A stretch of 17,271 nucleotides of DNA from Candidatus Hydrothermarchaeales archaeon (lineage in GTDB: Archaea; Hydrothermarchaeota; Hydrothermarchaeia; Hydrothermarchaeales; JAZGAD01): assembly GCA_036444275.1 (NCBI GenBank), contig JAZGAD010000030.1:1-17271 (forward strand), in the 5' to 3' direction. The notes beneath the pieces are model-generated. The model made no database searches. It saw only the letters and a list, made by a program, of their open reading frames with translations, and was not told the DNA's origin. The position numbers and the translations under genes were made by a program. How positions within the stretch are numbered: position 1 is the stretch's first letter; each line of letters opens with the position of its first letter. Below, one piece after another: positions 1 to 14,887 of this stretch.

Positions 1-276
1 AGACTCTGTTTCACGTTCGGTATCGTGTTTCAACTGCCGATTATCGTGCTCGTGCTGAGCCTCACCGGTCTTGTCACCCCCGGTCTTCTCCTTCGGCAGT
101 GGCGCTACGCCATCCTTGTGATTTTTGTGGCGGCCGCGATCCTGACTCCGCCCGATCCCGCGTCACAGGTATTGATGGCTTTGCCGGTCATACTTCTGTA
201 TATTGGGAGCGTTTTGGTCGCTCACGTCGCCGTCAGAAAACGACAAAAGAGACAGCCGTATGTGGAGAATGACTGA
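1..276 (+). CDS. tatC: Twin-arginine translocase subunit TatC, 3' part (5' end outside window), bacterial segment
   Basis: Frame is open from base 1 (RLCFTFGIVFQLP...). Contains typical TatC C-terminal motifs FQLP, WRYAILVIFVAAAILTPPDP and LLY with hydrophobic TM segments. Confidence 0.92.
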   Translation, partial: RLCFTFGIVFQLPIIVLVLSLTGLVTPGLLLRQWRYAILVIFVAAAILTPPDPASQVLMALPVILLYIGSVLVAHVAVRKRQKRQPYVEND

Positions 277-297
277 CCGGGTGAGATCGGAGAACAA

Positions 298-478
298 TTG
301 CCGAAGAGAATAACCAAAAACACGGCCAAGAAAGTAGCGCGATTCACTCTGGAGAAGAAGGCGTTTGACGTTCAGCTCATGGATCTTCGCAAGGTCACAC
401 CGGTGACGGATTTTTTTGTGATCTGTTCCGGTACAACAAATGTGCAGGTCAAGGCGATCGCAGACAACGTGATTGATC
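298..478 (+). CDS. rsfS: Ribosome silencing factor RsfS (Iojap), N-terminal ~60 aa only, broken at the GATC junction
   Basis: TTG start after GGAGA. EKKAFDVQLMDLRKVTPVTDFFVICSGTTNVQVKAIADNV matches the RsfS N-terminus. After ...NVID the ORF runs into antisense of the tubulin-family gene and lacks the RsfS C-terminal EG...W.L.D...VH motifs. Confidence 0.88.
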
Positions 479-1186
479 CTTGCTACCTGGGGCGATCATC
501 ATGTCTATTACTTTTATTATTTCTTGATTTATCGTGTAGTACCGCTCCTCCGTTTCAGCGCCACTTACGCCGACGATCTTTTCCACTTGGTCGTTGTCCA
601 CTAATAGTAAGAGGTCTGCGTTCTGTCTACCGTCGCTGCCGAACTTAAGCAGTCTCGAGATGCCGCATACGACGTTGAAGAATCTCTGGGGCGCCTCAAA
701 GTCATAGGGGAGTATCCCGAGGGACATATAACTGTTCTCGCCAGCAGCCACTATACCCTTGCCGTATTTGAGCTCATGGATTATGTATGGTAAAGAGCCG
801 TTCCCAGTGCCGCCTCCCAGTGTTGTGATACCAAAGAGTACATCTCGCCCACCAAGTTTCAGATTAGTTATATAGCGCCTTATGGTATCGAAATCTTCCC
901 TAGCCTCGTTCTCCCCGACCTTCCAGTTATTTCCGGCTCCAGAGGGAGATTTCCCGAAGATACAGATCTTCTCCCGTCTTATGCGGTCGTAGACCTCGCT
1001 GAAATTTGGATCCTTAGTGAGCATGTACTCAAAGGTCTTCTCAGGCCTCACGTCGGCCGTCGTGGTATTCAACAGCAGCACGCGATCATCTATGGTTGGA
1101 TTATGAAATTTTGCGTAATATAAAAAGGACACTCTATTAGCGCCTTCCCCCGCGGCTATTATGCTCCATCTCGTTCCTTCTTCCAT
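449..1186 (-). CDS. Tubulin/FtsZ-superfamily GTPase (divergent, CetZ/tubulin-like); C-terminal domain missing, genuine sequence ends at ~475
   Basis: Degenerate T1 IIAAGEGANRV, LLLNTT, T3 SGAGNNW, T4 LGGGTGNG, GILPY..E, LLLVDN and YYTINQEI. AGGTGA Shine-Dalgarno before the ATG. Stops just before the expected T7 loop. Confidence 0.88.
   Translation of the reverse strand: MEEGTRWSIIAAGEGANRVSFLYYAKFHNPTIDDRVLLLNTTTADVRPEKTFEYMLTKDPNFSEVYDRIRREKICIFGKSPSGAGNNWKVGENEAREDFDTIRRYITNLKLGGRDVLFGITTLGGGTGNGSLPYIIHELKYGKGIVAAGENSYMSLGILPYDFEAPQRFFNVVCGISRLLKFGSDGRQNADLLLLVDNDQVEKIVGVSGAETEERYYTINQEIIKVIDMMIAPGSKDQSRCLRSP
475..478. other. Probable chimeric junction (GATC) between bacterial and archaeal DNA
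   Basis: rsfS (+) and the tubulin-family gene (-) both lose recognisable family similarity at this GATC. Genes to the left are bacterial and genes to the right are archaeal. Confidence 0.8.
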
Positions 1187-1202
1187 AGGTTCACCTGGCT
1201 TC

Positions 1203-2633
1203 TTATTTCCTTCTCCTCAATTTCTCTCTCAATTCAGTGGTAATTATTGATTTCAAAGTGAGAACAGGTGGATTCTCCTTGAACTCTACATCTGAGTGCT
1301 TCGAACTGTAAAAGTGCATGAATTTATCAGCGTACTTGACCTTTAAATCCGGTCCGGCCAGTTTCCCATTTTCCTTTAATCTTTGGGTGATTATAGGCTC
1401 TAGTTTTTTGAAATTCTCTAGCACCTTCATGAACATAACATCCTTACGGTACTGCACAGTCACCCGCTTCAACGCCTTCAAGGAGTCTTTACTGAAGGCA
1501 TCCAACTCCTGAGACGGATCGACCTTATCAACAAGCTCACCAATACCATCATCTCGGTCCCAGAAATCCTTCCCAGGTTCGTGTGGGGTTATCTCGGCTT
1601 CCATATCAGAGAGTTCATGGTTCAGCTCTGCCAGTGTAGCCGCTAGTTTGTTCTTGAATTGAGCATCAAGCTCTTGAAGTTCGTCCATTCTCCCTGGATC
1701 ATTGAGCGAGGAAATTCTGTCCTTCAGCTCCCTTATGGGAAAACTATATTTTGTAGCCTCCCCACCCAGGAACTCGAGGTGTTTCTCCACAGAGGAAAGT
1801 AGCCGAGTGTGTTGCTTTGCAAAGCTGGAGGCCATAATATCTTTTAATTTGTTCCTAGCAGTTATGAACAGGGAAACGCACGCATCCAGATCGTCCATTC
1901 TTTTCATTGCTTTCGTTATATCTTCTTCAGCCTGATTCGTATCCCCGTATTTCTTGGCCGTAGATGCTATGGTCGTGACCTCCTCCACACAGCTTGTCAA
2001 TAAGGAAGTAAAGACTTCATCGGCCCTCCGGTCCTTCTCTACCAGTTCCTCCAAGCTCTTGGCATAGTAGTTTGCGACAGCATCGAAATCCTTTACGCCT
2101 TGCCCTATACTATACCCCGCGCCTTCTAATTCTTGCAGCTTGGAGCCGAGGTTGCGGATGTGTTCATTCAGCTCGGGCTTGTAGCTGCCGGCGGTAAGGG
2201 TTTCTAAACTGAGGAGTTTCTGTTCTGTCTTCCTTGTCTGTTGCTCAATAAAGGTCAAAGTAGACTTATAGACTCCCCTGGTAACCCTCTCGAAGTTTTC
2301 ATCAAAGAGCCTTAACTTAATAAGGCTGCTCCTTATGGCATCTAATTCCCGCTGGATATCCTTGATGTCGATAAGGTTGCTGGATTGAGTGACTAAATCC
2401 TGGGTTTTGTTAAATTCCATCCTGATCTTGCTTAGAGTCTCAACCTTTAGTTTTTCTATTGTCTTGTCAGAGGTTGTCTTCCACCAAGTATAAAGAACGC
2501 TCCCTAGGATAGAGACAGCTATCACTCCTAGGCCAAAATACGCTACTTCTGCTATCCCAAAGTTCACTAACAAAAAAAAACCTACACCAATGGTGGCTGC
2601 TATAACTATTGTAGCGGCGACGTACTCATTCAT
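1203..2633 (-). CDS. Membrane-anchored long coiled-coil protein (two N-terminal TM helices, small C-terminal globular domain)
   Basis: Two hydrophobic N-terminal segments followed by ~370 aa of E/K/L-rich helical sequence. Start moved to ATG 2633 because GAGGTG (SD) lies 6 nt upstream. Ends 16 nt before the tubulin-family gene, so probably the same operon. Confidence 0.85.
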   Translation of the reverse strand: MNEYVAATIVIAATIGVGFFLLVNFGIAEVAYFGLGVIAVSILGSVLYTWWKTTSDKTIEKLKVETLSKIRMEFNKTQDLVTQSSNLIDIKDIQRELDAIRSSLIKLRLFDENFERVTRGVYKSTLTFIEQQTRKTEQKLLSLETLTAGSYKPELNEHIRNLGSKLQELEGAGYSIGQGVKDFDAVANYYAKSLEELVEKDRRADEVFTSLLTSCVEEVTTIASTAKKYGDTNQAEEDITKAMKRMDDLDACVSLFITARNKLKDIMASSFAKQHTRLLSSVEKHLEFLGGEATKYSFPIRELKDRISSLNDPGRMDELQELDAQFKNKLAATLAELNHELSDMEAEITPHEPGKDFWDRDDGIGELVDKVDPSQELDAFSKDSLKALKRVTVQYRKDVMFMKVLENFKKLEPIITQRLKENGKLAGPDLKVKYADKFMHFYSSKHSDVEFKENPPVLTLKSIITTELREKLRRRK

Positions 2634-2742
2634 GAAGTGCACCTCGAGAAACCTTGTCTTACTACAGTAAAGGAAATACCCTGTTTTTGTTAATATCCTT
2701 TTGCAATCTTCTCTGACAACCCATTTGATCTACCACTCGAAC

Positions 2743-2756
2743 TTATACTAGTATAA
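2743..2756. promoter_or_regulatory. Perfect 14-bp palindrome TTATACTAGTATAA in an AT-rich intergenic region, possible operator or promoter element
   Basis: Read directly from the sequence. Lies ~110 nt upstream of the coiled-coil gene start. Confidence 0.35.
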
Positions 2757-2911
2757 TATCAATAATAAATGCATTTCCCTTTTTAGTATTAATGGTGAAC
2801 CACTTCCTATTGTAAGTGATTTAACAATTAGATTAGAGCATATATTATATCTTCAATGGTATGGTAGCCTAGTCTATTTAATCCGAAACCTAGCTTATCT
2901 AACCCTCTGGA

Positions 2912-4141
2912 TTATTCCAGAGTAGCAGCTTCTTCTGCTTCCTCTGCCTCGTACACAGCGAAGTCCTTTTCGTATTCCTCTAGGACCCGTAAAGAAATAT
3001 TCTCGTACTGCCCGGCTAGCTTGCTCAGCGTGTATAGCCTAGACAACTGATTGGGCCTGTATGTTAGGAGTACTGTGGCGCTAGCGAGGTTCCTCTTGGT
3101 GAGAGCGACACCGAAGTGCGTCTCACCCAAACGCGACCTCTCTTCCATCACCCTCTTTGCCATCGACGTGTTCACCTTACCGGCTTTGGTAAGGTATGCA
3201 GGTGGAAGCCGCAGTAGCACGAGGTTCTTTTCGGCTTCTCCAACCCGTATGTCTTCTAGGGATAACTTCATGAAAGCCCGGTAGAGAAGGCTCACCACAT
3301 CTATCTCCTTGTACCCCCTTACCGGGAAGATATAGTGTAAGAAGTCCCTTGTCTTCTCACTAGCCCTGCCTAGGCAGGCAAAGCCCGGGCGCTGCTTATC
3401 CTTAAGAGTGAAAGAGGATGCAGCTATCATGTCCTTAATATCTATTACAGGTGCATAGCCCTCAAACTCAGCTGGGTTCAGCCTCTCCAATGCGGTACCG
3501 ATCACTATGTCCCTCAGGCTCCTAGCTACATATTCATTGTAGCGCTGGAATAGGTTCTCGCTGCTCTCAGAGTATGCCAGCTTCTGGTTGTCCACGAGCA
3601 CGATAGAATCCACATATTCAACGAGAATGTTCAGACTTTCCACAGCGTTCTTAGCGGTTAGACCGCCCTCATGGCTGGCTGGCAAAACTACGATGGCTAT
3701 CACAGGGATTCCCATCTCTTTGAAAACTTTTGCTATTATGGGTCCAGCACCGCTTCCTGTTCCACCTCCAAGACCGAAAGCCACAAAGGCGACGGCTATG
3801 CCCACGCCCTTTTCGTCAGCACCCTTTACTCTGGCCCTTTCCACGATTATGTCCCGTATGCTATCCTCATAGCGCTCAGCATCTTGCGCGGCATTTGCCC
3901 TGTTCTTTCCATAGCCCCCGCTGACGAAGTGTTCGAAACCCGTTATTTTGCCATCGATGAAGCCTCTATCTCTAGTCATGCCTACCCAGTACCGCCTATC
4001 GATGTACTTCAAAGTCTGCAGGTCCATGGTAGCTGAATTCACAAGGATAGGCTCAGCTACCTGGTACATGTTTTTTTCATAGAAAGCGGCATCTACTATC
4101 GCTCCACCGCACTGTCCTACTCCGATGAATGCATATGGCAT
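2912..4141 (-). CDS. Tubulin/FtsZ-superfamily GTPase, CetZ-like, full length
   Basis: T1 FIGVGQCGGAI at the extreme N-terminus (no FtsZ N-terminal extension), LVNSA, GGYGKN, T4 GLGGGTGSG, VVLPASHEG, LVDN, T7-like VIDIKD, LGRASE and an acidic C-terminal tail. Confidence 0.92.
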   Translation of the reverse strand: MPYAFIGVGQCGGAIVDAAFYEKNMYQVAEPILVNSATMDLQTLKYIDRRYWVGMTRDRGFIDGKITGFEHFVSGGYGKNRANAAQDAERYEDSIRDIIVERARVKGADEKGVGIAVAFVAFGLGGGTGSGAGPIIAKVFKEMGIPVIAIVVLPASHEGGLTAKNAVESLNILVEYVDSIVLVDNQKLAYSESSENLFQRYNEYVARSLRDIVIGTALERLNPAEFEGYAPVIDIKDMIAASSFTLKDKQRPGFACLGRASEKTRDFLHYIFPVRGYKEIDVVSLLYRAFMKLSLEDIRVGEAEKNLVLLRLPPAYLTKAGKVNTSMAKRVMEERSRLGETHFGVALTKRNLASATVLLTYRPNQLSRLYTLSKLAGQYENISLRVLEEYEKDFAVYEAEEAEEAATLE

Positions 4142-4163
4142 AGTCTACTCTTAGGGGGTAAAT

Positions 4164-4173
4164 ATTTATAAAT
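4164..4173. promoter_or_regulatory. Palindromic archaeal TATA box (ATTTATAAAT), likely bidirectional promoter for leaderless transcripts
   Basis: TTTATAAA at 4165-4172 sits in the middle of a 53-nt spacer, ~23-24 nt from both divergent ATGs (4141 and 4195). Confidence 0.7.
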
Positions 4174-4194
4174 TTATAGGGTGGAATTAGATGC

Positions 4195-5157
4195 ATGAGT
4201 TCAAGAGTTCTGCTTCTGGCGATGACTTTAATGTTAATTCCTTCGGTTTATGCCCAAAGTTGCGGGGACCTTGTATTAACGGTACGGGGCTTGCAGTCCC
4301 CTGCTTTCGACGAGTACTACCAGCTCAACGACATGAAGCAGGATGCCCTGCTTATCCTCTATGGACGGGAGAGGGCTACTTGTCCCGAAGAGGTTATAGG
4401 TCTCTCATCCTCAACAATAGAGTTCATTGAAGATTTCAGTGTTGCCTACAACCTGAGCCGGTCAGAGGCACGTGTAGATCGCGTCGATGCATTGGAGAAA
4501 TCTGTGAAGCTAGTAGGTTCTGCAGCTGCATTATCCCGGTACACGTTGGGTATAGAGGCTGAGGATCTAATAAATTCGGCGCAGCAGGCCTCTAGGGAGT
4601 TTCTCATTATACAGGGCAAGGCATTTCTAAGCAAGGCAGAGAGTGCTTCGGCAACGAAGGATAAGATCTTTAACTACAAGCAGGCCACCGTAGCATACGA
4701 AGCAGCTGGAGAAACCCTGGAGGCAGCTAACCTGAGGATGAAATGGAAGGCATTGGAAGAGAGCTATTCGAGAGATATGGAGAAAGCCGATGTGCAATTT
4801 GTTGCAGGAGAATCAAAGTATTCCTTAGCAAAACAACTACTATCTCGGGATATTTTTTCTAGAATAGAGGCATATACATTAACCAGGGAAGCGTCGATCC
4901 ACTTCGAGAAAGCAGCGGTTTACTATGAGTATCATCGTGAGCAAGAAAAGATCAGGGATACAGTGGGTGAGATATCTGCTACAGCGAATACGCTGCAGGA
5001 ATTGAGGAATAACATCGGGCTGTATTTCGCTATCTCAGGCATCGCCTTGTTGGGTGTTGCCCTGTTCTTGATAAATCGTTTGAAGGCATGGAATAACGAC
5101 GCATATGACTACAACTTGGGAAATGAACTAGTGCAGGTGAGTACCGGTGAAACATAG
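4195..5157 (+). CDS. Exported alpha-helical single-pass membrane protein (signal peptide, helical ectodomain, C-terminal TM, short tail)
   Basis: Signal peptide MSSRVLLLAMTLMLIPSVYA, TPR/SNAP-like helical patterns (YKQATVAYEAAG), TM GLYFAISGIALLGVALFLI. Confidence 0.85.
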   Translation: MSSRVLLLAMTLMLIPSVYAQSCGDLVLTVRGLQSPAFDEYYQLNDMKQDALLILYGRERATCPEEVIGLSSSTIEFIEDFSVAYNLSRSEARVDRVDALEKSVKLVGSAAALSRYTLGIEAEDLINSAQQASREFLIIQGKAFLSKAESASATKDKIFNYKQATVAYEAAGETLEAANLRMKWKALEESYSRDMEKADVQFVAGESKYSLAKQLLSRDIFSRIEAYTLTREASIHFEKAAVYYEYHREQEKIRDTVGEISATANTLQELRNNIGLYFAISGIALLGVALFLINRLKAWNNDAYDYNLGNELVQVSTGET

Positions 5158-5170
5158 TTCCGGGGGTGAA

Positions 5171-7180
5171 ATGGGGTTCAATCTAGTTAAGTTGGGCGTT
5201 GTCTTACTCCTCGTGTCAACCTTCTTTGGCGAGGCATATGCGATTGTCACGTGGCATGTATCAGGGTGGAATTACGAATTTGACGTTGACTTCAATGAAC
5301 CCAGAGGCACGAAACAATACACGATAGGTAGAACAATTGTGTTTTATAATAGCGATGAGAATTACAGCGTATCTATTCCTAGTCTAGCTGCTACTACAGA
5401 CATAGATGGTTTTACGGTCGAGTTGAGGGCGACATCTATAAATATTGATCCAGAAACGACTAAGAGTGTGGACGCGACCTTCCACGTTGCTCCTAACATG
5501 ACAGAGGGCACTCACAAGGGTAAATTGAGGATAACAGGTGCAAATGTAAGTACCAGTCCGAAGTCGGTTACGGTAGACATAACCTGGCCCAACCCAGCTA
5601 TTACTGCGGTCTGGGATCAAAGGGACTGGGGTAAATTAAAGGCTGGCAGTGCCTTCAAACAGAGATTCATCGTAAACGAGACCATGGGGTACCACCTTGC
5701 TGAGAATGTTAGCCTTAGGATAGGTAATATAGGGTCAGCAGCGTTGAATTATAGCGGTGCTCTTGGGGACATACTTCCATTTGGATCTAAGAGGGTGACA
5801 GTAGATGTAGAGGTGCCTGAGCGGAATCTGGAGCCAGGCACATACTCGGTTACGCCGAGGTTAAGCTCAACTAACATCACTGACATAGACGTGGAAGATG
5901 CCGCCTATGCCATACCCATGCCGGTATTAGAGCTGGACAACCATTCTATGGCTTTCGGTGACATCACCTTTGAAGCTGGGAGAGACGCTTCATTGAATAT
6001 CTTGACCGTGAAGGAGAGCGGGGGTTATACCCCTGTAGAGGACATAAACCTAACCCTTTCATCCGGGGAGGGTGGCTGGATAACCTATACTCAGATCGAT
6101 TATCTACCCCGAAACTCGTCCAAAATTCTCAACTTTATCCTAAGGCTGCCGCCGGAAGCCAGCTTAGGAGATAAGAAATGGGAATTCACTATCGACACCC
6201 TATATGCCGGCTCTCATAAAATCGAGGCAACTACCACTGTGTATTTCCCTGGAATCGAGGATGCATTGATAGACCTGCAAAACGCCACGGTACTAAACGT
6301 CACGGAATCCAAAATCATCCTAGATAACTCCTTGCTCCTGCTTCAAAACTCTAGGGGAGCGACTGAAATCAGGAAGATCGCGATGGTAATGTCAGTATAT
6401 AGTGGTACTCGGTCCATACTGAATCTAATGAAGGAGGCAAAGGATAGCAAAGCCACCGATCTTGATAGAGCAGGTTCTGCGATTATACTAGCTGAAAATG
6501 CCCTCAACAAGATAAAGATCGGAGACGAGAACATAGAGGATGAGAGTCTGAAGCAATACACTACTGCAATTGCGCAAGCAGCCGATTCGCTGTGGAGGTC
6601 TAATGCTGTCGCTATCCTGAGTTTGATAAGTGATAGAGCTGAGGCGAGTAAGGACTCTGATTATAAGACAGCAGCAATATACTACAAGAGGGGAAAGAAG
6701 ATATACTCCCTTCTTGGCGATACAGAGGCAGAGAATGAGTACCTCGCCCTCCAGACGCTAAAGGAGGAGGAGTACCGCGAGTCGCTTACAAGGGCGATAA
6801 AGCTGAAGTCAGAAGGAGCAGGAGAATTAGAAGTTGCAAGGGCGAAGATGTTTGGAATAGGCAACGTATACTTTGTTCTGAATCCTTTTGCCTATGATTT
6901 GGTCTCGCAGAATTATAGGCGTGTCATCGAGAAATATACCGATGCTAGAGAGCTATTCGAGGTCGCTGGCGAACGCGACGATGCAGAACTCCTTTCAAGG
7001 GAGGTAGTAGCGACTGTAAATCAGGAGCAAACGATTCGGATAGGCTTTTTGGTGTATGGACTATTCTGGACTGTCTTATTCGTAGGATTCATTGCGAGAG
7101 TAAGCTTGGGACTGCAGTACTTCAAGCAGGATGAGGAGGATACCTACATCGGCGAAGTGGTGCTGCCAGAAGAAAGATGA
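5171..7180 (+). CDS. Exported single-pass membrane glycoprotein (Ig-like beta domains, helical domain, C-terminal TM, short tail)
   Basis: Start moved to ATG 5171 (GGGGTGA SD). Signal peptide ending AYA, about three beta-sandwich-like segments (EGTHKGKLRITG, PGTYSVT, GDKKWEFTI), about 12 N-x-S/T sequons, TM GFLVYGLFWTVLFVGFIA. Confidence 0.85.
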   Translation: MGFNLVKLGVVLLLVSTFFGEAYAIVTWHVSGWNYEFDVDFNEPRGTKQYTIGRTIVFYNSDENYSVSIPSLAATTDIDGFTVELRATSINIDPETTKSVDATFHVAPNMTEGTHKGKLRITGANVSTSPKSVTVDITWPNPAITAVWDQRDWGKLKAGSAFKQRFIVNETMGYHLAENVSLRIGNIGSAALNYSGALGDILPFGSKRVTVDVEVPERNLEPGTYSVTPRLSSTNITDIDVEDAAYAIPMPVLELDNHSMAFGDITFEAGRDASLNILTVKESGGYTPVEDINLTLSSGEGGWITYTQIDYLPRNSSKILNFILRLPPEASLGDKKWEFTIDTLYAGSHKIEATTTVYFPGIEDALIDLQNATVLNVTESKIILDNSLLLLQNSRGATEIRKIAMVMSVYSGTRSILNLMKEAKDSKATDLDRAGSAIILAENALNKIKIGDENIEDESLKQYTTAIAQAADSLWRSNAVAILSLISDRAEASKDSDYKTAAIYYKRGKKIYSLLGDTEAENEYLALQTLKEEEYRESLTRAIKLKSEGAGELEVARAKMFGIGNVYFVLNPFAYDLVSQNYRRVIEKYTDARELFEVAGERDDAELLSREVVATVNQEQTIRIGFLVYGLFWTVLFVGFIARVSLGLQYFKQDEEDTYIGEVVLPEER

Positions 7181-7221
7181 TTGTTCCTTTCGATTCGACA
7201 TATCGCTGAGCTGACGTGATG

Positions 7222-9630
7222 CTAGACTATGGTACGTTTGAGTCTATTTATTATGCTGGGTTTCTCCAGCATCTCCTCCACGTAATTCAAGAGCGCCACT
7301 GCTATCAATATAGAAGCAGCTGTTTTAAATCCCGACTCGCTAGTTGTGCTCTCTAGAAGTCCTTCAGATATCCGCCAGAGACCTGTGACAGGTAGGATGG
7401 TCAGCTCACCCATCTTCTTGGTAATCTTCTCATCAGTATCCCTTAATTTCTTCCGGGCCTGGGAGCGATTATCCCTTGCTGAAAACTCAGGATCCCTAAC
7501 TGCATCCATAAAGGCGTGTGGAAATTCTTCACCTAGTCCGCTAGGTCCGCAATCCTCTGCTTTCAGTCCGATAGAAGCCTTGTATATCTGAACATTCTTC
7601 CAATCGGTTATTACAGAGGATATGCTATCACCGATGCTGCCTAAGATGTCGATAAAGTCCTGGGTTATTCCTTCGTAGTTCTCTGTCTTGGAGGCGAAAT
7701 ACTCTGGATTAGTGGGTAGCTTTTCAGCGAAAGCTATAAAGTTCTCAGCGATGCCCCCGTAATAGTTAGGAAGGCACATATCAAAGGAGGAAACCTCTCC
7801 AATGCTTTTATCCAGCGAGCTCCTTATAGATTCAAGTATATTTTCCTGCATAGCACTCAATTTAAGGACGGACTCTAGCTGGACCGTTATATGATCTTCT
7901 TCCCCAGTAGAAGTGTAGGGGGTCCTTTGCACGTCATATAACTCTTTCTCCACCATGAGGGTATACTCACCTATCGCAGGCACGAATACAGCTTCGCCGT
8001 CAGAATTGGTTCTCTTCTCCACATGGTCAATGATTACCTTGGCGTTGGGCACTGCAAACCCCGCTTGATTCACCACTTTTACCCGGAATTCCTTTACCGC
8101 TACCTCCATAGCTTTCGCTTCTTCAAGCGCCTTCTCTCGGAGCCGCAATCTTGTCCTCACTACTAGAACACCGATTACAACAGCTAAGCCTATGACGGCA
8201 AGGTAGGCATACACCGGATTTCGCTTTGATGGTTGCTCAAGAGGTGGAAGAGCTCTAGAGTTATCGTAAAAGAGGAGCTTCCTGCCTTGAGAATAAGATA
8301 GATAATCCCCGCTGGACGCAATGGCCACGGAGATGATTCCCATATCCGGACGCCGCCATACCTCCTCCCCTTCCTTGAATAGATATAAGCTGGAGTTAGT
8401 AGAAGTGAAGATGTATTCCCCCTGTAGACTCATGGAGACACTGGAAACCACATCTAGAGTAGGATAAGTAGAGAGAATGCTTTTATTTTCGATGTTCAAG
8501 ATGTAGATTTTGTTGCCTGCGCCTGCTGCTATTCGTCCGTTTGATAGTGAGATGCTGGTTATTGTTCTTGGTGTTGTGTAAGTCCAGAGTGTGGTTTTGT
8601 TTTCTAGTACGTAGATTTTGTTGCCTGCGCCTGCTGCTATTCGTCCGTTTGATAGTGAGATGCTGGTTATTGTTTCATTCATCGTATATTCTGCGATAAT
8701 ACCTCCATTCCTCCCGATTATGTAGACTAAGCTTCCACTGCTGTAAGCTATAGCGCTTCCATCCCCCGCGATATCAATGGAGCTAATAGGCGCCTTTTCC
8801 TCCCTCATCCAGAGAAACTTAGGTGGGGCTATCTCGGATTTATTTAATAGGTAGACTACTATCTCATCCATACCACTATTATTCGCCAAATCAGTTGCTA
8901 TGACTTCCACCTTGTAGGGTCCCTCGGTAAGGTTTAAGGTGTCCCAGGAATATGGAAAGTTCAAGACTTCTTTACCCGCTATCCTAAGGGAAACATTGGC
9001 GAGGGGATCTCCAACCGAGGCGTCTATCAAGATTATCTCCCCAAGCGTAGCCTCCACTACACCGCTTATAGAGGTAACCTCAGGGCTCGTGATCTCTACC
9101 GAAGGCGGTATAGTGTCGTTACTGGACACCTCTCCAACCTCTATGGAGCCGTCAGCAAATAGGATATGGCATTCTTTATCGCAGTATGTGCATGCACCAG
9201 AAGCATCGAAATCACGGGCTGCTGTATCTTGGTTAAACAAGAAGATTAGTCTAAAGTTATAGACACCAGGCTCTGCAGGGGTTCTGACAGAGATAGTAGA
9301 TTCAACGCTGCCTCCGACTCCTTTCACTCCAGAAAACAGCATTCCTATCTCAGTATTGGGGGCCCAACTTCCAAAGGCATTAACCTGTACTAGGCAATCA
9401 GGGCAGGGTGCATTCCAGTCCCATTTCACTTCCACGGGTATCCTCTGGAAGGAATCAACCCTTATGCTCTCTTGGATGCCATCTGAGGCGGAATCCATGT
9501 CGAGGTATCCAAAGGTCAGAGGCCCAACCTCATATCCCGGGGTTAGCTGGTGGGTATATGTAGGGCAAGAAGCCGAAACCATCGGCATCAGAGATAGGAG
9601 CAAGATTGCAGTGAAAAGTCTCCGCAACAT
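7222..9630 (-). CDS. Large single-pass membrane protein: Cys-containing and Ig-like domains, beta-propeller repeats, TM, then carboxypeptidase-regulatory-like beta domain and helical C-terminal domain
   Basis: Start moved to ATG 9630 (signal peptide MLRRLFTAILLLSLMPMVSA) because the longer ORF overlaps a tRNA. Big-like PPSVEITSP...WDT...EGPYKVEVIATD, WD/PQQ-like blades, TM VYAYLAVIGLAVVIGVLVV, then VPNAKV...TNSDGEA...GEYTLMVEK. Confidence 0.85.
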   Translation of the reverse strand: MLRRLFTAILLLSLMPMVSASCPTYTHQLTPGYEVGPLTFGYLDMDSASDGIQESIRVDSFQRIPVEVKWDWNAPCPDCLVQVNAFGSWAPNTEIGMLFSGVKGVGGSVESTISVRTPAEPGVYNFRLIFLFNQDTAARDFDASGACTYCDKECHILFADGSIEVGEVSSNDTIPPSVEITSPEVTSISGVVEATLGEIILIDASVGDPLANVSLRIAGKEVLNFPYSWDTLNLTEGPYKVEVIATDLANNSGMDEIVVYLLNKSEIAPPKFLWMREEKAPISSIDIAGDGSAIAYSSGSLVYIIGRNGGIIAEYTMNETITSISLSNGRIAAGAGNKIYVLENKTTLWTYTTPRTITSISLSNGRIAAGAGNKIYILNIENKSILSTYPTLDVVSSVSMSLQGEYIFTSTNSSLYLFKEGEEVWRRPDMGIISVAIASSGDYLSYSQGRKLLFYDNSRALPPLEQPSKRNPVYAYLAVIGLAVVIGVLVVRTRLRLREKALEEAKAMEVAVKEFRVKVVNQAGFAVPNAKVIIDHVEKRTNSDGEAVFVPAIGEYTLMVEKELYDVQRTPYTSTGEEDHITVQLESVLKLSAMQENILESIRSSLDKSIGEVSSFDMCLPNYYGGIAENFIAFAEKLPTNPEYFASKTENYEGITQDFIDILGSIGDSISSVITDWKNVQIYKASIGLKAEDCGPSGLGEEFPHAFMDAVRDPEFSARDNRSQARKKLRDTDEKITKKMGELTILPVTGLWRISEGLLESTTSESGFKTAASILIAVALLNYVEEMLEKPSIINRLKRTIV
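8503..8674. repeat. Exact 64-bp direct repeat (8503-8566 and 8611-8674, period 108 bp) encoding duplicated propeller blade TITSISLSNGRIAAGAGNKIY
   Basis: Both copies were compared base by base and are identical. Confidence 0.95.
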
Positions 9631-9654
9631 GCAACTAACTTCTGGAACTTTGAA

Positions 9655-9668
9655 TAAAAAGCTTTTTA
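9655..9668 (-). promoter_or_regulatory. BRE/TATA-like element (palindrome TAAAAAGCTTTTTA) upstream of the 9630 start; its T-run could also terminate the tRNA transcript
   Basis: Minus strand reads AAAAAGCTTTTTATT ~25-35 nt before the ATG and just downstream of tRNA-Gln(UUG). Confidence 0.5.
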
Positions 9669-9674
9669 ATGGAA

Positions 9675-9747
9675 TAGCCCGGAGCGGATTCGAACCGCTG
9701 TCGCGGGCTCCAAAGGCCCGCATGATTGACCGCTACACTACCGGGCT
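9675..9747 (-). tRNA. tRNA-Gln (UUG)
   Basis: 73-nt cloverleaf: acceptor AGCCCGG/CCGGGCT (A1-U72, archaeal Gln type), anticodon arm CGGGC-CTTTGGA-GCCCG, T-loop GGTTCGAATCC. No intron and no CCA directly after the discriminator. Confidence 0.97.
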
Positions 9748-9767
9748 ATGATGCGAACACAATGGGA

Positions 9768-9840
9768 TAGCCCGGAGCGGATTCGAACCGCTGTCGCGGG
9801 ATCCAGAGTCCCGCATGATTGACCGCTACACTACCGGGCT
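9768..9840 (-). tRNA. tRNA-Gln (CUG)
   Basis: Same cloverleaf with anticodon arm CGGGA-CTCTGGA-TCCCG. Confidence 0.97.
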
Positions 9841-9900
9841 AATTAGTTGGTGCCGCTAGGAAAGATTTATCATCCATTTGGAAATAAACCTTTGGGTAAC

Positions 9901-10737
9901 ATGTTCCAGTACGTCAGGATTCTTAGGCCCCTTAACTGTGCAATGGCGGGGATAGCAGTAATAGTTGGGGCAGTTGTAGCCTCAGATGTATTTCCTGTAA
10001 TGAAGATAGCCTTGGCTTTCTGGGCAACTTTTATGATATGTGGAGCTGGAAACGTGGTAAATGACTTCTTTGACTATGAGATTGACAAGATCAATAATCC
10101 CCTACGTCCTCTTCCTTCGGGAGCAATACCCCTAAACCTAGCCCTCTACTATGCCTTATCACTATTCGTGCTTGGAGTGCTAGCATCAGCTTTCATAAAC
10201 ATATACGCCCTTGTCATTGCTCTTTTTAATTCCCTTTTGCTCTACGTCTATGCCCAGCGGATAAAGAAGGGAGGCGGAATAAAGAAGAACCTAACCGTCA
10301 GCTACCTCGTAGCATCGCCTTTCTTTTTCGGGGGAATAGCGGTAATGGTTGTGGGAAAACCGCTTGTAACCCTCCTTCTAGCCCTTATCGCTGCCTTTGC
10401 GAATACTGGTAGGGAGATAGCCAAGGATATTGAGGACTACAAAGGAGATTCAATGTTTATCAAGACACTGCCTGCTAGAGTAGGATTTGAGAAGGCTTCT
10501 AGACTCGCTGGAGCATTCCTCTTTGCCACGGTAGTCCTAAGTCCACTTCCCTACTTCTTTGGGATTCTAAATTGGTATTATCTTCTCATTGTATTAGCAG
10601 CAGATGTTGTTGTCGCGTATGCAGCTATGATTTTGTTGAGAAATAGCAGTGACCCAGTAAAGGCAAGTGAGAGTCAGAGGATGATCAAAATCGGGATGTT
10701 GCTAGCATTAGCGGCCTTCTTTGTGGGTAGTCTTTAA
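9901..10737 (+). CDS. Digeranylgeranylglyceryl phosphate (DGGGP) synthase, UbiA prenyltransferase family
   Basis: ILRPLNC, GNVVNDFFDYEIDKINNPLRPLPSG, REIAKDIEDYKGD, KTLP and multiple TMs. ATG 9901 preferred over TTG 9847. Confidence 0.9.
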   Translation: MFQYVRILRPLNCAMAGIAVIVGAVVASDVFPVMKIALAFWATFMICGAGNVVNDFFDYEIDKINNPLRPLPSGAIPLNLALYYALSLFVLGVLASAFINIYALVIALFNSLLLYVYAQRIKKGGGIKKNLTVSYLVASPFFFGGIAVMVVGKPLVTLLLALIAAFANTGREIAKDIEDYKGDSMFIKTLPARVGFEKASRLAGAFLFATVVLSPLPYFFGILNWYYLLIVLAADVVVAYAAMILLRNSSDPVKASESQRMIKIGMLLALAAFFVGSL

Positions 10738-10783
10738 CTATTCTGCTATTGCTCTACTCAATTAGCAGTTTATCAGCTATATA

Positions 10784-11521
10784 CTATCCTAAATCCTTTA
10801 TTCTCCCAAGGGCCGTGCCATCCAACAAGTATGCCTCAGCATTTGCCATGTCTACTAAACCCTTGTTAAAGAGCGGACCCAGTAGTCTTCTCTCACAATT
10901 AAAAGGAGTACCGGGAAGCATATCATTGAAGGCAGGCGCTATTACCACCTTTGGAGACGTATTCAATCCAAATAGCTCCATTCCTCTCTCATTCAGCTCA
11001 GCCCTTATCCACGCACTCTCTCTTACAGCGTAGCCAAATTCGTCCCTGAAGTCTATGCATGGATGATTGTGGCCCAGTACTATGTATTCATAGTCAGCAG
11101 AAGGGATATTCATATGTCCATGGGTTAGCAATGCTCCATTAATCTCTAGGCTCTTAACGATCTCAGTTTTTGGTAGGAGCCGTTCTATGCCGCCATCATG
11201 ATTTCCCTTTACAATTATCACTTCGCTGTGCTCTGATAACCCCGCTACAAATCCTGGTATCCCTGAGTACTCACGCCACGACATCGCTGGGATATTGTGC
11301 TTCAAGTCCCCTACGATAATAAGGCTCGCGGCGCTAGATATTTCCAAGAGATGTACCAGCCTTTCCCGCATCTTCTCCCATTGAGGCCTAATGATGATCC
11401 CTTTTTTACGAAGCTCGTGCTCAAAGCCTAGGTGGAGATCCGCTACTACAAGGTAATTCCCTACAATCAACGCCCTTTCGCTATGGATAGGTTCCACCGC
11501 AAGTTTTACAAGGTCGGCCAT
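10784..11521 (-). CDS. Calcineurin-like metallophosphoesterase (archaeal ICC-like family)
   Basis: Motifs ADLHLG, GDLKH, GNHD, HGH, GHNHP and PAFN. Likely start is ATG 11521. Confidence 0.9.
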   Translation of the reverse strand: MADLVKLAVEPIHSERALIVGNYLVVADLHLGFEHELRKKGIIIRPQWEKMRERLVHLLEISSAASLIIVGDLKHNIPAMSWREYSGIPGFVAGLSEHSEVIIVKGNHDGGIERLLPKTEIVKSLEINGALLTHGHMNIPSADYEYIVLGHNHPCIDFRDEFGYAVRESAWIRAELNERGMELFGLNTSPKVVIAPAFNDMLPGTPFNCERRLLGPLFNKGLVDMANAEAYLLDGTALGRIKDLG

Positions 11522-11620
11522 GTTCGCTCCGCTATTGGAATTATATTGTTTGATTGATATCACTTCCACTAATGTAAAAACATTAATATTGGGAAATATA
11601 ATTTAAATGGAGGTGATAGT

Positions 11621-11902
11621 TTGCTGGAAGCCAAAACTGAGATAAGACTGGTCGGCCATGTATTGGAGAGGGGTATAATCTTCAAGCTTTCGGAAGCAAT
11701 AAAAGACGTAGATGTAGAAGTCATGCACTGCGAGGTTTCTTTTGCAGCCCTCAAAGCAGGGATAGAGGAAAAGATGCCTTCCTTCATGCGCTTCTACCTA
11801 GTGGGGGCTAAGGAGGAACGGGATAAAGCAGTGGAAGCTGTGAAAAAACTTGCTGAGGAGACTGCGTGTAAAATAGATTATATTCGGGAGAGGCGTGACT
11901 GA
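11621..11902 (+). CDS. Small hypothetical protein, possible ACT/ferredoxin-like fold
   Basis: Perfect GGAGGTGA SD before TTG, alternating beta/alpha pattern (IRLVGHVLERGII), and TGATG overlap with the next gene. Confidence 0.7.
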   Translation: MLEAKTEIRLVGHVLERGIIFKLSEAIKDVDVEVMHCEVSFAALKAGIEEKMPSFMRFYLVGAKEERDKAVEAVKKLAEETACKIDYIRERRD

Positions 11903-12714
11903 TGAAAGCCCAGGTCACCTTAACCGTAGCTGAGTCGAAGAGGTTGATAGGAAAGGCGGTGAAGGAGCACCCATGGGTGAAGAAAGCCTTGAAAAGTGGG
12001 ATAATAGCTATAGGCACTGGTTCCACCAATGCATATGTGGTAGAAGAAATTCTAGGCATAGAAATCGAGAAGAAGAGGCACATAGCTGGATTCATAGACG
12101 AAGAAGGCGCATGCATCGTTCCGAGGGATGAGAGAAGCAAGAGCATAGTCCTAGATAATGGTAGGCGGGTAGACGAATCTCTAGAGGCTGTTGCCAAGAG
12201 AATGGGCAGGGACGACGTATTTATCAAAGGTGCAAATGCATTGGATTTCGACGGTATAGCCGGGGTAATGATGGCAAGCCTTACAGGCGGCACTGTTGGC
12301 GATGTTATCGGAACGCTAAAGGCAAGGGGGATAAAGCTCCTTATACCTGTGGGCCTCGAAAAGCTGATTTGCCACTCGGTAGCTGAAGCTTCCAATATCG
12401 CTGGTATCTATGAGATGGATTATTCTGACGGTGTACCCGTGGGCATAATGCCTATCTCAGGGGAAGTGATAACCGAGATAGAGGCTTTTATGATTCTCTC
12501 GGATGTAGATGCCGTTAACATTGGCGCAGGAGGGATCGGAAGCGGAGAGGGGTCTAAGACCTTCATACTACACGGGAAAGAGGGCAAGGTATCGAAGGCT
12601 CTAAGAATCCTAGAATCCATACGAGGTGAGGAGAATATAGAGCCCTTAAGAGGCAAGTGTAAGGATTGTGTATACCTATACTGCCCGCGCAATAAAAGCA
12701 AAAAAGATAAATAA
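11902..12714 (+). CDS. Conserved hypothetical protein, probable RpiA/CoA-transferase-like fold with C-terminal Cys motif
   Basis: LTVAESKRLIGKAV N-terminus, IAIGTGST, FIKGANALD, PVGLEK and C-terminal CKDCVYLYC. Confidence 0.7.
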   Translation: MKAQVTLTVAESKRLIGKAVKEHPWVKKALKSGIIAIGTGSTNAYVVEEILGIEIEKKRHIAGFIDEEGACIVPRDERSKSIVLDNGRRVDESLEAVAKRMGRDDVFIKGANALDFDGIAGVMMASLTGGTVGDVIGTLKARGIKLLIPVGLEKLICHSVAEASNIAGIYEMDYSDGVPVGIMPISGEVITEIEAFMILSDVDAVNIGAGGIGSGEGSKTFILHGKEGKVSKALRILESIRGEENIEPLRGKCKDCVYLYCPRNKSKKDK

Positions 12715-12734
12715 GCCGCTTTTGAGGTAATACC

Positions 12735-13322
12735 ATGGATGTCCTGCAGGAGTCGATGCTGAGCATTGCGGATCACGTTAAAAAGATAACTAATTCCTTA
12801 GATGAGGTGCCAGTGAATGAGATGATCAACTTGATTCAGAAGGCGCAAAAGGTTTTTGTGTACGGCTCTGGTAGGAGCGGGCTAGTGGGTAAGGCGTTTG
12901 CCATCCGCCTTATGCACCTGGGAATAAACGTATTTGTCATTGGCGATGTGATAAACCCTGCTATAGTAAAGGAGGATGTGTTGATAGTCATCTCGGGTTC
13001 TGGGGAGACCGATACCCCTGTTAATGCCGCCAAGATAGCGAAGGGTGCAGGCGCCAAGATCGTAGCTATAACCACCTATCCAAGCTCTACAATAGCTAAG
13101 ATCGCTGACACCATAGTAGTCATTAAGGGCAGGACCAAGTTGAAGGGTGAGACGGACTTCCTACTGCGGCAGATCAAGGGAGAGCATTATTCGCTTGCAC
13201 CTTTGGGGACCTTGTTCGAGGTATCGGTGCTCATCTTCCTTGATGGCCTGATTGTAGAGATGATGACTCGAATGGGTAAGAGCGAAGATGACATGCGGGT
13301 ACGTCATGCCACGATAGAATAG
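12735..13322 (+). CDS. hxlB: 6-phospho-3-hexuloisomerase (SIS domain, RuMP pathway)
   Basis: VFVYGSGRSGLVGKAFAIRLMHLG, ISGSGET, APLGTLFE and C-terminal RHATIE. GAGGT SD. Confidence 0.93.
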   Translation: MDVLQESMLSIADHVKKITNSLDEVPVNEMINLIQKAQKVFVYGSGRSGLVGKAFAIRLMHLGINVFVIGDVINPAIVKEDVLIVISGSGETDTPVNAAKIAKGAGAKIVAITTYPSSTIAKIADTIVVIKGRTKLKGETDFLLRQIKGEHYSLAPLGTLFEVSVLIFLDGLIVEMMTRMGKSEDDMRVRHATIE

Positions 13323-13331
13323 AGGGATGTC

Positions 13332-13586: not shown

Positions 13587-13611
13587 TCTAAGTTGGACGA
13601 GGATATAACAT

Positions 13612-14034: not shown

Positions 14035-14053
14035 AAAAGAAGGGAATATCTCC

Positions 14054-14287: not shown

Positions 14288-14441
14288 GGTCTCCTACCTC
14301 CTACCACTCTTCTAGGACAGAAGGTATATAAAAAAGTTTTGGTGTGGGGTTAGTTTTAAGAGCCTAGAAATTAGCCTCTAGATAACCTCGAAATCTATAT
14401 ATACCTGCTAGTCTTGTCTTATTCATTCGAGGCGAACAGAG

Positions 14442-14837: not shown

Positions 14838-14887
14838 TATCTGGAGTGTAAGTGCTAGAAGCACTCGGTCATCGGAGGAAATGTAAC

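Follow-up and report, generated by a model that had tools for sequence, protein, structure and literature searches.

A conserved archaeal gene cluster combining two divergent tubulin-superfamily GTPases with membrane and exported proteins: a candidate cytoskeleton-to-surface link in Hydrothermarchaeota

Six consecutive genes (here G1 to G6) of a Hydrothermarchaeota archaeon (Candidatus Hydrothermarchaeales) seem, on a modest balance of the evidence, to be that phylum's version of a conserved archaeal module linking tubulin-like filaments to the cell surface. An uncharacterised link of this type is proposed because the six genes keep together across several archaeal phyla, and the observations drawn on concern the genes present and their topology signals, their family placement and domain links, and their conservation with all-or-none co-occurrence. 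The DNA analysed, termed the window, is a stretch of 17,271 nucleotides (contig JAZGAD010000030.1, positions 1-17,271 of the forward strand, assembly GCA_036444275.1). An earlier sequence-only reading of it had listed six consecutive genes, and all six are present at about the positions where it had placed them.

One end of the contig is chimeric and lies outside the system. Positions 1-475 are a misjoined bacterial fragment with the C-terminus of TatC (1-273, plus strand; Pfam TatC 75 bits) and the N-terminal half of RsfS (298-477, plus strand; Pfam RsfS 43 bits, model positions 2-50 of 98). The RsfS and G1 frames are both interrupted at about 476; read cover is absent on window 1-400 in public run X1, and loose ends occur at 476 both in X1 and in a further public run, X2. 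Contigs from two public runs match the window from 476 on and have different sequence before it, while contig C2 of the same assembly matches 476-691 at 94%, with the match starting only at 476. Because of the misjoined fragment, G1 is incomplete at 476: the open reading frame called at 449-1186 on the minus strand is genuine only from 1186 down to 476 (the N-terminal 237 codons, with 34.1 bits for PF00091 in this window fragment), a truncation overlooked when 449-1186 was earlier taken as the whole gene. The missing 3′ half, a 283-residue C-terminal part, is on C2, and the full protein is ~445 aa, with full-length orthologues being 423-451 aa.

From their sequences, G1 and the 409 aa product of G3 (2912..4141, minus strand; PF00091 90.5 bits) are members of the tubulin/FtsZ superfamily that have kept the nucleotide-binding loops and the PF00091 signature, invariant as GGGTGNG in G1 and GGGTGSG in G3, even if a full-length orthologue of G1 scores 30.5 bits against the PF00091 cut-off of 33. 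G3 has a T1 loop of the GQCGG type and, as had been claimed, lacks the N-terminal extension of FtsZ; its C-terminus has a conserved LEEYEKDF motif and an acidic tail, and that of G1 also has a conserved motif, both motifs being by analogy like the FtsZ C-terminal peptide. D243 and D246 of G1 (invariant in 44 orthologues) and D234 and D237 of G3 (invariant in 16 sequences) stand in columns that we take, from familiar FtsZ motifs, to be the T7 loop, whose acidic residues, required for the polymer to hydrolyse GTP, are kept in both proteins and lost in a few members of the wider family. The alpha/beta-tubulin pair is asymmetric in its T7 aspartates, unlike G1 and G3, each of which keeps both. That the two GTPases are very dissimilar was correctly perceived, identity being 23% over 275 profile columns, with the profiles matching each other at 98.3% probability.

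Neither GTPase matches FtsZ_C (PF12327) at E<=1, and both fall far below the TIGR00065 cut-off of 295 bits, G3 scoring 84.6 and G1 38.1. CetZ_C (PF21011) has no match at E<=1 in G1, in G3 or in their homologues from haloarchaea, ANME-2, Altiarchaeales and Micrarchaeota (7 proteins), as against 210 and 102 bits in the canonical CetZ genes (C3a and C10) of the window's own genome. In a tree of 87 sequences, the product of a quick LG+G4 search with long-branch warnings on a set without eukaryotic tubulin, artubulin, OdinTubulin, TubZ or FtsZl references, G3 and G1 each have a clade of their own (24 and 25 rows, respectively, both with SH-aLRT support 100), outside a clade of 11 PF21011-bearing proteins and three own-genome paralogues. 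The lineage grouping is the same in the G1 and G3 subtrees, and G1, G3 and CetZ are together across a long branch from FtsZ. On the evidence of domain matches and tree, then, both GTPases represent well-supported clades of the tubulin superfamily that are distinct from canonical CetZ and FtsZ, and the placement of both in ordinary CetZ clades, which the sequence-only reading had named as telling against its proposal, is not what was found. FtsZ_C genes are present in 30 of 30 relatives, with or without the cluster, and for this reason, together with the canonical CetZ of its own genome, the cluster is considered an extra system. (No FtsZ_C gene was found in the window's own genome, which is 81% complete.)

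Between the GTPase genes is G2 (1203..2633, minus strand), whose product, a membrane tether candidate, begins with a TM hairpin, continues with helical-bundle repeats over ~350 aa and ends in a winged-helix-like domain (model pLDDT 91.7); its residues 406-475 match the wH region of UFL1/DDRGK1 (Z 7.5, rmsd 2.3, 68 aligned). G2 is directly upstream of G1 in every G2-bearing lineage. The AT-rich 278-bp spacer that separates it from G3 (2634..2911) is missing in relatives, whose G3, G2 and G1 genes are contiguous or overlapping; it differs between strains, with a joint and loose ends at 2877/2905. Prediction of a G1-G2 complex gave ipSAE values of 0.54, 0.53 and 0.54, the highest of 3 controls being 0.00, with at least 84% agreement between runs and a partner pLDDT of 84 or more. 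This is a weak pass, and the calibration of the tool shows such passes to be wrong in most cases unless the interaction is likely beforehand; the modelling weakly suggests that G2 may tether G1. FtsZ has the membrane tethers SepF, FtsA, ZipA and EzrA, and tubulins that work as heterodimers include alpha/beta-tubulin and BtubA/B. The likeness of the present cluster to these is one of analogy, namely a GTPase pair presumed to polymerise with a membrane protein encoded beside it; between G2 and EzrA or other tethers there was no sequence match and no convincing fold match.

The 53-bp spacer on the other side of G3 (4142..4194) has, on direct reading, an AT-rich TATA-like stretch that is partly palindromic, in keeping with the divergent promoter earlier envisaged as common to G3 and the G4/G5 pair. 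G4 (4195..5157, plus strand) encodes an exported protein, as judged from its signal peptide and topology, whose helical ectodomain is followed by a single C-terminal TM and, in the cytoplasm, by a conserved tail of 22 aa (W..D.YDY.LGNELV). G5 (5147..7180, plus strand), by the same signals also exported and with one TM, has three Ig-like (ASH-type) domains, which bear 12 N-glycosylation sequons, and then a helical bundle (model pLDDT 88; Foldseek matches to ASH-domain arrays, E 3e-16). Its cytoplasmic tail is likewise conserved (RD......G.VVL), D662 and G669 hardly varying among 27 sequences that represent four lineages, and the tails rank among the most conserved positions of both proteins. 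Signal peptides, sequons on the ecto side and conserved tails on the cytoplasmic side support the trans-membrane topology first envisaged. The view that G4 and G5 are paralogues survives for part of their length: BLASTP of one against the other is not significant (E 0.49), and hhalign matches G4 to the C-terminal half of G5 (97.3%, E 1.8e-11, 292 columns), to which, since the profile comparison matches there only, paralogy is limited, with the remainder of G5 excluded.

G6 (7222..9630, minus strand; Pfam matches, sequons and TM) has a signal peptide, Cys-rich/Ig-like domains and a beta-propeller, then a TM and a cytoplasmic module of 305 aa consisting of a CarboxypepD_reg-like beta-sandwich and a helical domain. 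A longer open reading frame overlaps two tRNA-Gln genes that are the cluster boundary (9674-9748 and 9765-9841, minus strand, TTG and CTG anticodons), so the start is put at 9630, where it had been before. Its membership was previously deemed the least certain, and it was not found in two of the eight fetched relatives. The cytoplasmic module is, however, homologous to a gene directly after G1 in other lineages (Micrarchaeota 5/5, L088, L089, L107, L114 and 19 of 20 haloarchaeal loci), on which ground G6 is assigned to the cluster. In all five Micrarchaeota loci a G6-type beta-sandwich is also fused to G3 (PEGA match).

G1 to G5 are syntenic in all eight fetched relatives, and the order G3-G2-G1 is present in 20 of 22 Hydrothermarchaeota loci, the remaining two of which begin inside the operon; G4-G5 is divergent from G3 in each of the 15 such loci having upstream sequence. 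Beyond that phylum, the core cluster occurs at one locus in Methanoperedens, at one in Archaeoglobaceae (with no G4 match), at locus L114 and at 19/20 loci in Halobacteria, and G2-G1 plus G3 in 5/5 Micrarchaeota loci. Homologues that were not co-located would have counted against the proposal as originally framed; co-location extends from the eight fetched relatives to these further phyla. Among 34 same-order genomes, G1, G2 and G3 are each in the same 23 and G5 in 22 of these, with none of the four found in the other 11 (80-98% complete), a genome-wide all-or-none pattern that pertains to these four genes and whose counts, coming from related genomes, are non-independent. A different type of locus has a G1 homologue without other components within 10 kb (25 loci in ANME-2/Methanosarcinales and three in Altiarchaeales, one of the latter having G3 7 kb away), and from these G1 is apparently able to work in a different context or with unlinked partners.

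Some of this has been partly noticed already. Santana-Molina et al. (2023, PMC9871819) describe CetZ from Hydrothermarchaeota as well as CetZ-like proteins from Altiarchaeota and Halobacterota. For the 'CetZ-like'/'Halo.Tub' groups, quasi-tandem copies and coiled-coil neighbours are reported, the contexts being treated as 'unknown and unrelated genes' (PMC9871819), and at the level of the text available these features fit the G3/TubX/G1 arrangement; that portion of the text mentions neither a cluster conserved over several phyla nor the G6 module or the exported pair of G4 and G5. Given these groups and the Halo_adaptin locus with its CetZ-like protein (PMC9871819, PMC11188069), the statement that this is not a characterised system has to be narrowed, and what stands is that no experimental work on any cluster member was found in the literature. 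RNA runs were absent from the listing as well. FtsZl1, a divergent FtsZ-like GTPase with conserved neighbours and a proposed role in membrane remodelling (Makarova and Koonin 2010, PMC2875224), has as neighbours a vWA protein, OmpA-family proteins and a GTPase distinct from itself, none of which types was found by Pfam in the six genes; G1 is set apart from it by neighbourhood only.

On another reading, the cluster would supply the tubulin half of a Halo_adaptin-type, ESCRT-like machine for vesicle budding or protein sorting. Filaments and surface proteins would define the cargo or site, and scission would fall to a Vps4-like ATPase and an ESCRT-III-like protein whose genes lie elsewhere or have been lost in Hydrothermarchaeota. 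Halo_adaptin loci are described as having arCOG11740, arCOG11741, an ESCRT-III-like protein, a Vps4-like ATPase and an adaptin-like protein, with CetZ-like, membrane, Ig-like/PEGA and beta-propeller proteins in addition (Makarova et al. 2024, PMC11188069). The latter set has its match here in G3/G1, G2, the Ig domains of G5 and the propeller plus CarboxypepD_reg-like domain of G6, and in both haloarchaeal genomes that were extended (L119, L121) G5 is adjoined by a convergent operon whose order, a wH protein (~372-426 aa), a coiled-coil protein (~350 aa), a small one (~242-264 aa), an AAA ATPase (PF00004, 111 bits) and a large one (~1000 aa), fits the published system as far as that paper's text allows comparison. 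Homologues of the operon ATPase are probably on the cluster's own contigs for at least 12 haloarchaeal loci, since their longest contigs equal the cluster's contigs in length, and AAA genes flank the cluster in L107 and L114. Even so, this reading is rather unlikely for the window. Neither the ATPase nor the ESCRT-III-like gene that defines it was found close to the cluster in Hydrothermarchaeota: there is no AAA ATPase (PF00004) on the window's contig (16 matches genome-wide), none within 10 kb in 22/22 Hydrothermarchaeota loci, and no Snf7 match over cut-off in the window's genome. Further, Haloquadratum is absent among the 120 matches listed, the loci are matched through the paper's text only, and that text gives the system one CetZ-like protein versus two here and three in Halobacteria.

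It is also very improbable that both GTPases are ordinary CetZ-type shape or motility proteins (as with Haloferax CetZ1/2, 4b45 and 4b46, of the same superfamily) to which the membrane and surface genes are unrelated neighbours. CetZ2 is the best solved relative of G3 (4b46, 65 bits), the shared position beyond the long branch from FtsZ would be expected, and the lone G1 loci of ANME-2 and Altiarchaeales would be accommodated, but the want of a CetZ_C match, the separate fully supported clades, and neighbours that are conserved across phyla with all-or-none co-occurrence all speak otherwise, and those neighbours differ from the ones reported for cetZ (cofactor biosynthesis, a sugar epimerase, type IV pili; PMC9856176). 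An accessory cell-division module beside FtsZ1 and FtsZ2 would also combine tubulin-superfamily GTPases with a membrane tether, and the architecture of G2 loosely recalls EzrA (4uy3, Z 7.8), yet at rmsd 11 that match falls within the noise usual for helical proteins, FtsZ_C genes are retained by relatives irrespective of the cluster, and in eleven genomes of the order FtsZ is present with none found of the four cluster genes searched. Large glycosylated ectodomain proteins are not known to belong to archaeal divisomes, and a division role is very unlikely. Least credible is a TubZ-type DNA-segregation system or other mobile-element function. One haloarchaeal copy is on a plasmid record (L097), the cluster is patchy in Halobacteria and G2 ends in a winged-helix-like domain; against this, that domain is carried by an integral membrane protein, 476-9850 contains no array of iterons or of centromere-like repeats, there were no PHROGs or PADLOC matches, and exported partners would be senseless for DNA partition. 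The Hydrothermarchaeota cluster lies, with conserved synteny, among chromosomal housekeeping genes (DGGGP synthase, tRNA-Gln, an aminotransferase). The TubZRC combination of a DNA-binding adaptor with a repeat centromere on a plasmid or phage is not seen, a judgment based on repeats, gene context and PHROGs.

For the favoured reading, a link from tubulin-like filaments to the cell surface, we infer polymerisation, binding partners and cellular output. The co-inherited G1 and G3 would polymerise, alone or together, on the inner membrane face, with G2, co-transcribed between them, acting as the integral-membrane tether. G4, G5 and G6 would be type-I surface proteins that show glycosylated Ig-like, helical and beta-propeller ectodomains and reach the cytoplasm by short conserved tails in the case of G4 and G5 and, in that of G6, by the adaptor module made up of beta-sandwich and helical domain. 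The filament would then position, cluster or move the surface complex, or shape the membrane beneath it, and the cluster may serve cell shape, contact, an appendage or remodelling.

A broader and distinctly tentative extension is of an ancient euryarchaeal transmembrane linkage machine, shared with DPANN, in which dedicated bitopic adaptors physically couple a two-tubulin filament to an extracellular glycoprotein assembly. If so, it would be a prokaryotic counterpart of eukaryotic cytoskeleton-to-surface links, and in Halobacteria its union with an ESCRT-like scission module would yield a single apparatus for membrane remodelling that has both tubulin and ESCRT parts.

The six genes between 449 and 9630, in which the sequence-only reading had seen a trans-envelope two-GTPase cytoskeletal system, form a cluster that is real and beyond chance, namely a conserved accessory gene module present across several archaeal phyla. 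On the reverse strand, G1 (449-1186) and G3 (2912-4141) have tubulin/FtsZ GTPase domains (from the ORF listing and family search for G1, and at 90 bits for G3), and with them lies G2 (1203-2633), which is without a family match, as are G4 (4195-5157) and G5 (5147-7180) on the forward strand. G6 (7222-9630, reverse strand) has weak beta-propeller and CarboxypepD_reg matches. Beyond it are archaeal housekeeping genes: two for tRNA-Gln and those for DGGGP synthase, a phosphoesterase, 6-phospho-3-hexuloisomerase, ThiS and MoaE homologues, an arginase-family enzyme and ThiI. Adjoining the hexuloisomerase gene is one for a 270-aa protein (11902-12714, forward strand) without a Pfam or NCBIfam match, with a Cys-rich CKDCVYLYCP motif at its end and kept at the same place in at least one relative (locus L031, 64% identity).

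All six genes of the sequence-only reading were found by ORF listing, with the amendment that G1 is cut at about 476 and its remainder is on another contig, C2, of the source genome bin (1.49 Mb, 81% complete). The window is itself an entire contig (C30, 17,271 bp) of that bin, and the names borne by its closest homologues assign the organism to Hydrothermarchaeota. The left end of the window, 1-475, is chimeric. It holds the C-terminal end of TatC (1-273, forward strand) and the first half of RsfS (298-477, forward strand, opposite to G1), with about 476 being the common break point of RsfS and G1. As RsfS genes are bacterial or organellar, this end looks like an assembly misjoin with bacterial DNA. 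A public sequencing run covering most of the window (X1) has zero cover on 1-400, and the contigs of this run and a second (X2) that match from 476 have different sequence before it. C2 is 94% identical to 476-691 and then runs on through the 283 C-terminal residues that G1 lacks in the window, after which comes an aminotransferase gene in convergent orientation. G1 as read has 245 aa, the final residues without conservation, and its full-length orthologues have 423-451 aa. Given the C2 continuation, the cut at 476 and the orthologue length, the window holds only the first 237 codons of a real gene that is whole in the organism.

That the neighbourhood recurs in other genomes is well borne out. 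With tblastn of the window proteins, G1-G5 are in the same order in 8/8 fetched relative regions, and G6 is present in 6/8. The relatives have G3, G2 and G1 end to end or overlapping, in an operon-like manner, and only the window has a 278-bp spacer, AT-rich, between G3 and G2 (2634-2911). Public contigs show a 27-base skip with loose ends at 2877-2905 and a 3-base insertion at 2752, so the spacer differs between strains. In a genome-wide search with four genes (G1, G2, G3 and G5) of 34 genomes of the same order, which are related so that the counts are not independent, G1, G2 and G3 each occur in the same 23, and G5 in 22 of these, the exception being 62% complete. The remaining 11 (80-98% complete) yielded none of the four and take in all six genomes of one family and all three of one genus; the pattern calls for several separate losses or gains.

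More widely, a full-length G1 profile gave 226 matches at E<=1e-3 among 1.84 billion representative proteins, only 34 of them at E<=1e-30. A locus scan queried with an 11-sequence subset of the G1 alignment, one genome per species, yielded 79 loci, all ORFs of which were searched with G1-G5 HMMs. In Hydrothermarchaeota, G3-G2-G1 is present in 20/22 loci (the other two start within the operon) and G4-G5 in all 15 that have sequence upstream of G3. The core extends to Micrarchaeota (5/5 with G2-G1, and G3 on the opposite strand), Archaeoglobaceae (one locus, with G2, G1, G3 and G5), and to one Methanoperedens locus and locus L114, each with all five genes. In Halobacteria, 19/20 loci have TubX, a third, very divergent tubulin gene, then G3, G2, G1, G4 and G5, all on the same strand; cultured Natrinema, Halorubrum, Haloarcula, Halorussus and Halopenitus strains and one plasmid record are among them. 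TubX (L098:1151-2740, and at the same place in 19 haloarchaeal loci; about 530-570 aa, PF00091 at 47 bits) heads the operon, with a gene for a bPH-domain and zinc-ribbon membrane protein coming after it. G2 and G1 of the Methanoperedens locus have between them an RRXRR-family gene (L089:9053-9913, 135 bits), likely an inserted mobile or nuclease-type gene splitting the operon. G1 is alone within 10 kb in 25 ANME-2/Methanosarcinales and three Altiarchaeales loci, with G3 7 kb off in one locus; a relaxed HMM search (E<=1) of seven of the ANME-2 and the three Altiarchaeales loci found no G2, G4, G5 or G6 homologues near G1.

Both GTPases are of the tubulin superfamily and very dissimilar to each other (in profile comparison, 98.3% probability, 23% identity over 275 columns). 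The glycine-rich signature is kept in each, as are, from alignment conservation, two invariant aspartates in the stretch that lines up with the FtsZ T7 loop, and on these grounds both proteins look like active, polymerising GTPases. The G3 C-terminus has a conserved LEEYEKDF motif and then an acidic tail, and that of Hydrothermarchaeota G1 a helix with a conserved WGF motif. Placement relied on a quick maximum likelihood tree of 87 sequences (LG+G4, SH-aLRT support, rooted on bacterial FtsZ) that is without bootstraps or references for eukaryotic tubulin, artubulin, OdinTubulin, TubZ and FtsZl, and carries long-branch warnings. A long branch separates bacterial and archaeal FtsZ from the CetZ, G3 and TubX/G1 groups. 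Neither GTPase is in the CetZ clade, which takes in the window genome's three other paralogues: G3 (24 rows) and G1 (25 rows) form separate clades, each with support 100, the latter grouped with TubX, a sister on a very long branch, and with one unnamed family. Members of that family, P0155-P0185 from the G1 profile search (about 430-455 aa, with weak tubulin domains), are sister to the G1 clade with support 93-99. Neither CetZ_C nor FtsZ_C from Pfam matches G1 or G3 at E<=1, which agrees with their apparent position outside CetZ and FtsZ. Within the G1 and G3 subtrees the grouping is the same, Hydrothermarchaeota, Altiarchaeales and Micrarchaeota versus Halobacteria, L114 and Methanoperedens, a correspondence that fits joint inheritance.

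G2 is the candidate tether. In its confidently predicted model (pLDDT 91.7) a TM hairpin at the N-terminus comes before about 350 residues folded as long helical hairpins or three-helix bundles, and the C-terminus forms a small alpha/beta domain that can be aligned over 68 residues with a winged-helix region (Z 7.5, rmsd 2.3). Foldseek of the model against PDB gave nothing under E 0.16 and VIA-align only generic helical-bundle matches (Z at most 9.9), neither yielding a specific structural relative for the rod; all of these matches, EzrA (Z 7.8, rmsd 11) and PRC1 (Z 7.2) among them, are inside the range expected for helical repeats, and the rod is assigned to no fold family. For complex prediction the cytoplasmic part of G2 was paired with G1 as the most conserved adjacency, both entered as alignments. 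The proposed GTPase/coiled-coil pairing passed weakly, with ipSAE of 0.54, 0.53 and 0.54 against 0.00 for the highest-scoring of three controls (runs sharing at least 84% of contacts, partner pLDDT at least 84), in a range, up to 0.60, where by the tool's calibration wrong passes outnumber right ones unless the pairing was probable from the start. The model thus lends weak support to binding of G1 by the cytoplasmic part of G2, counted as a small increment.

On the outer side, G4 and G5 each have a signal peptide, a single C-terminal TM and a short, conserved cytoplasmic tail. Within its first 390 residues G5 has 12 N-glycosylation sequons, and its model (pLDDT 88) shows three ASH-type Ig-like domains, then a helical bundle running into the TM helix; in a 27-sequence alignment from four lineages few positions are nearly invariant, D662 and G669 of its tail being two of them. 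The two had been read as paralogous exported proteins. Export and homology stand, the likeness being confined to the helical bundle, TM and tail of G5, to which G4 is the counterpart (hhalign 97.3%, E 1.8e-11); BLASTP between them is not significant. A protein atlas search with their helical ectodomain gave no named match; the top one was an unnamed archaeal cluster (score 0.88, TM 0.53).

G6, the member rated least certain initially, is supported as belonging by sequence comparison. It has a signal peptide and an ectodomain in which Cys-rich and Ig-like regions, a propeller and nine sequons are present; after the TM and basic residues comes a 305-residue cytoplasmic part, consisting of a CarboxypepD_reg-like beta-sandwich and a helical domain. 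Of two HMMs, one built for each half, that for the cytoplasmic module matches the gene directly downstream of G1 in Micrarchaeota (5/5), Halobacteria (19/20) and L114, and two genes each after G1 in locus L088, Methanoperedens and Archaeoglobaceae. In these proteins, which are anchored in the membrane, the module and the exported part lie on opposite sides of it. In Micrarchaeota, G3 carries a fused C-terminal extension that the beta-sandwich alone matches (5/5, E 2e-9 to 3e-4) and that also has a weak PEGA match in Pfam, under cut-off. The propeller half finds its match (110 bits) in a propeller protein of 1051 aa encoded convergently in the Methanoperedens locus, and in the Methanoperedens, Archaeoglobaceae and Natrinema loci both extra genes and longer G2 homologues hold CarboxypepD_reg/PEGA domains (Pfam). 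A perfect 64-nt direct repeat within G6 (8503-8566 and 8611-8674, 108 nt apart) corresponds to a duplicated beta-propeller blade segment (ITSISLSNGRIAAGAGNKIY); either a recent duplication in frame or an artefact of the assembly may explain it.

A role as the divisome can be dismissed. Canonical FtsZ_C genes are present in 30/30 relatives searched, mostly two each, and the source genome of the window carries two canonical CetZ genes, so the cluster is an additional, dispensable system. (No FtsZ_C gene was found in the window's own 81%-complete bin.) One of these CetZ genes (380 aa) adjoins a gene for a 334-aa protein with the GTPase domain only, at C3:10456-12609, and the second CetZ-type gene is on contig C10. 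The Borg 'large FtsZ-tubulin homologues', described in the available parts of PMC9605863 and 10.1101/2024.11.05.622173 as proteins of about 1057 aa with an inserted coiled coil, were set aside as not being the same thing.

Such systems have partly been noticed in print. In the sections available, Santana-Molina et al. 2023 (PMC9871819) report CetZ for Hydrothermarchaeota, CetZ-like proteins for Altiarchaeota and Halobacterota, and 'Halo.Tub' copies in quasi-tandem with coiled-coil neighbours, in contexts deemed unrelated, and Brown and Duggin 2023 (PMC9856176) leave 'non-canonical' tubulin-superfamily proteins out. The text of Makarova et al. 2024 (PMC11188069), as available, describes 'Halo_adaptin', an ESCRT-like system. 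When two haloarchaeal loci were extended, an operon with an AAA ATPase converged on G5, and its gene order is that published for Halo_adaptin, as compared with the paper's text only. By that description the haloarchaeal form of the cluster is very probably part of the published system. Homologues of this AAA ATPase are probably on the same contigs as the cluster at no fewer than 12 haloarchaeal loci, since the longest contigs on which they occur match the cluster's contigs in length; Haloquadratum, the reference organism of that paper, is absent among the 120 ATPase homologues listed. The main rival explanation, in which the cluster would serve an ESCRT-like machine for budding or sorting as its tubulin half, draws on this association and is judged rather improbable: in contrast to the haloarchaeal form, the Hydrothermarchaeota cluster has no AAA ATPase on the window's contig, nor within 10 kb in 22 loci. 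A full-text literature search found the set of two tubulins, G2, G4/G5 and the G6 module nowhere described as a unit, and PHROGs gave no match and PADLOC one, at 12.6 bits far too weak to count.

Somewhat favoured on balance is a membrane-anchored tubulin-like filament system coupled via bitopic adaptors to a glycosylated surface assembly. In this membrane-spanning layout, as predicted from sequence features, the filament proteins would be inside the cell, the tether and adaptors in the membrane, and the glycoproteins outside. To our knowledge there are almost no functional assignments in the archaeal tubulin superfamily beyond FtsZ and CetZ, and here is a compact, strictly co-inherited gene set of clear topology in Hydrothermarchaeota, Methanoperedens, Archaeoglobaceae, Micrarchaeota and Halobacteria. 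Cultured haloarchaea (e.g. Natrinema, Halorubrum, Halorussus and Halopenitus strains) have homologous clusters, which makes the hypothesis testable with existing genetics and cryo-tomography. The cluster joins two separate literature observations, the CetZ-like groups with coiled-coil neighbours and the Halo_adaptin ESCRT-like system, and suggests that a tubulin module is the more widespread core. If true, this would bear on the pre-eukaryotic linkage of cytoskeleton, membrane remodelling and surface organisation.
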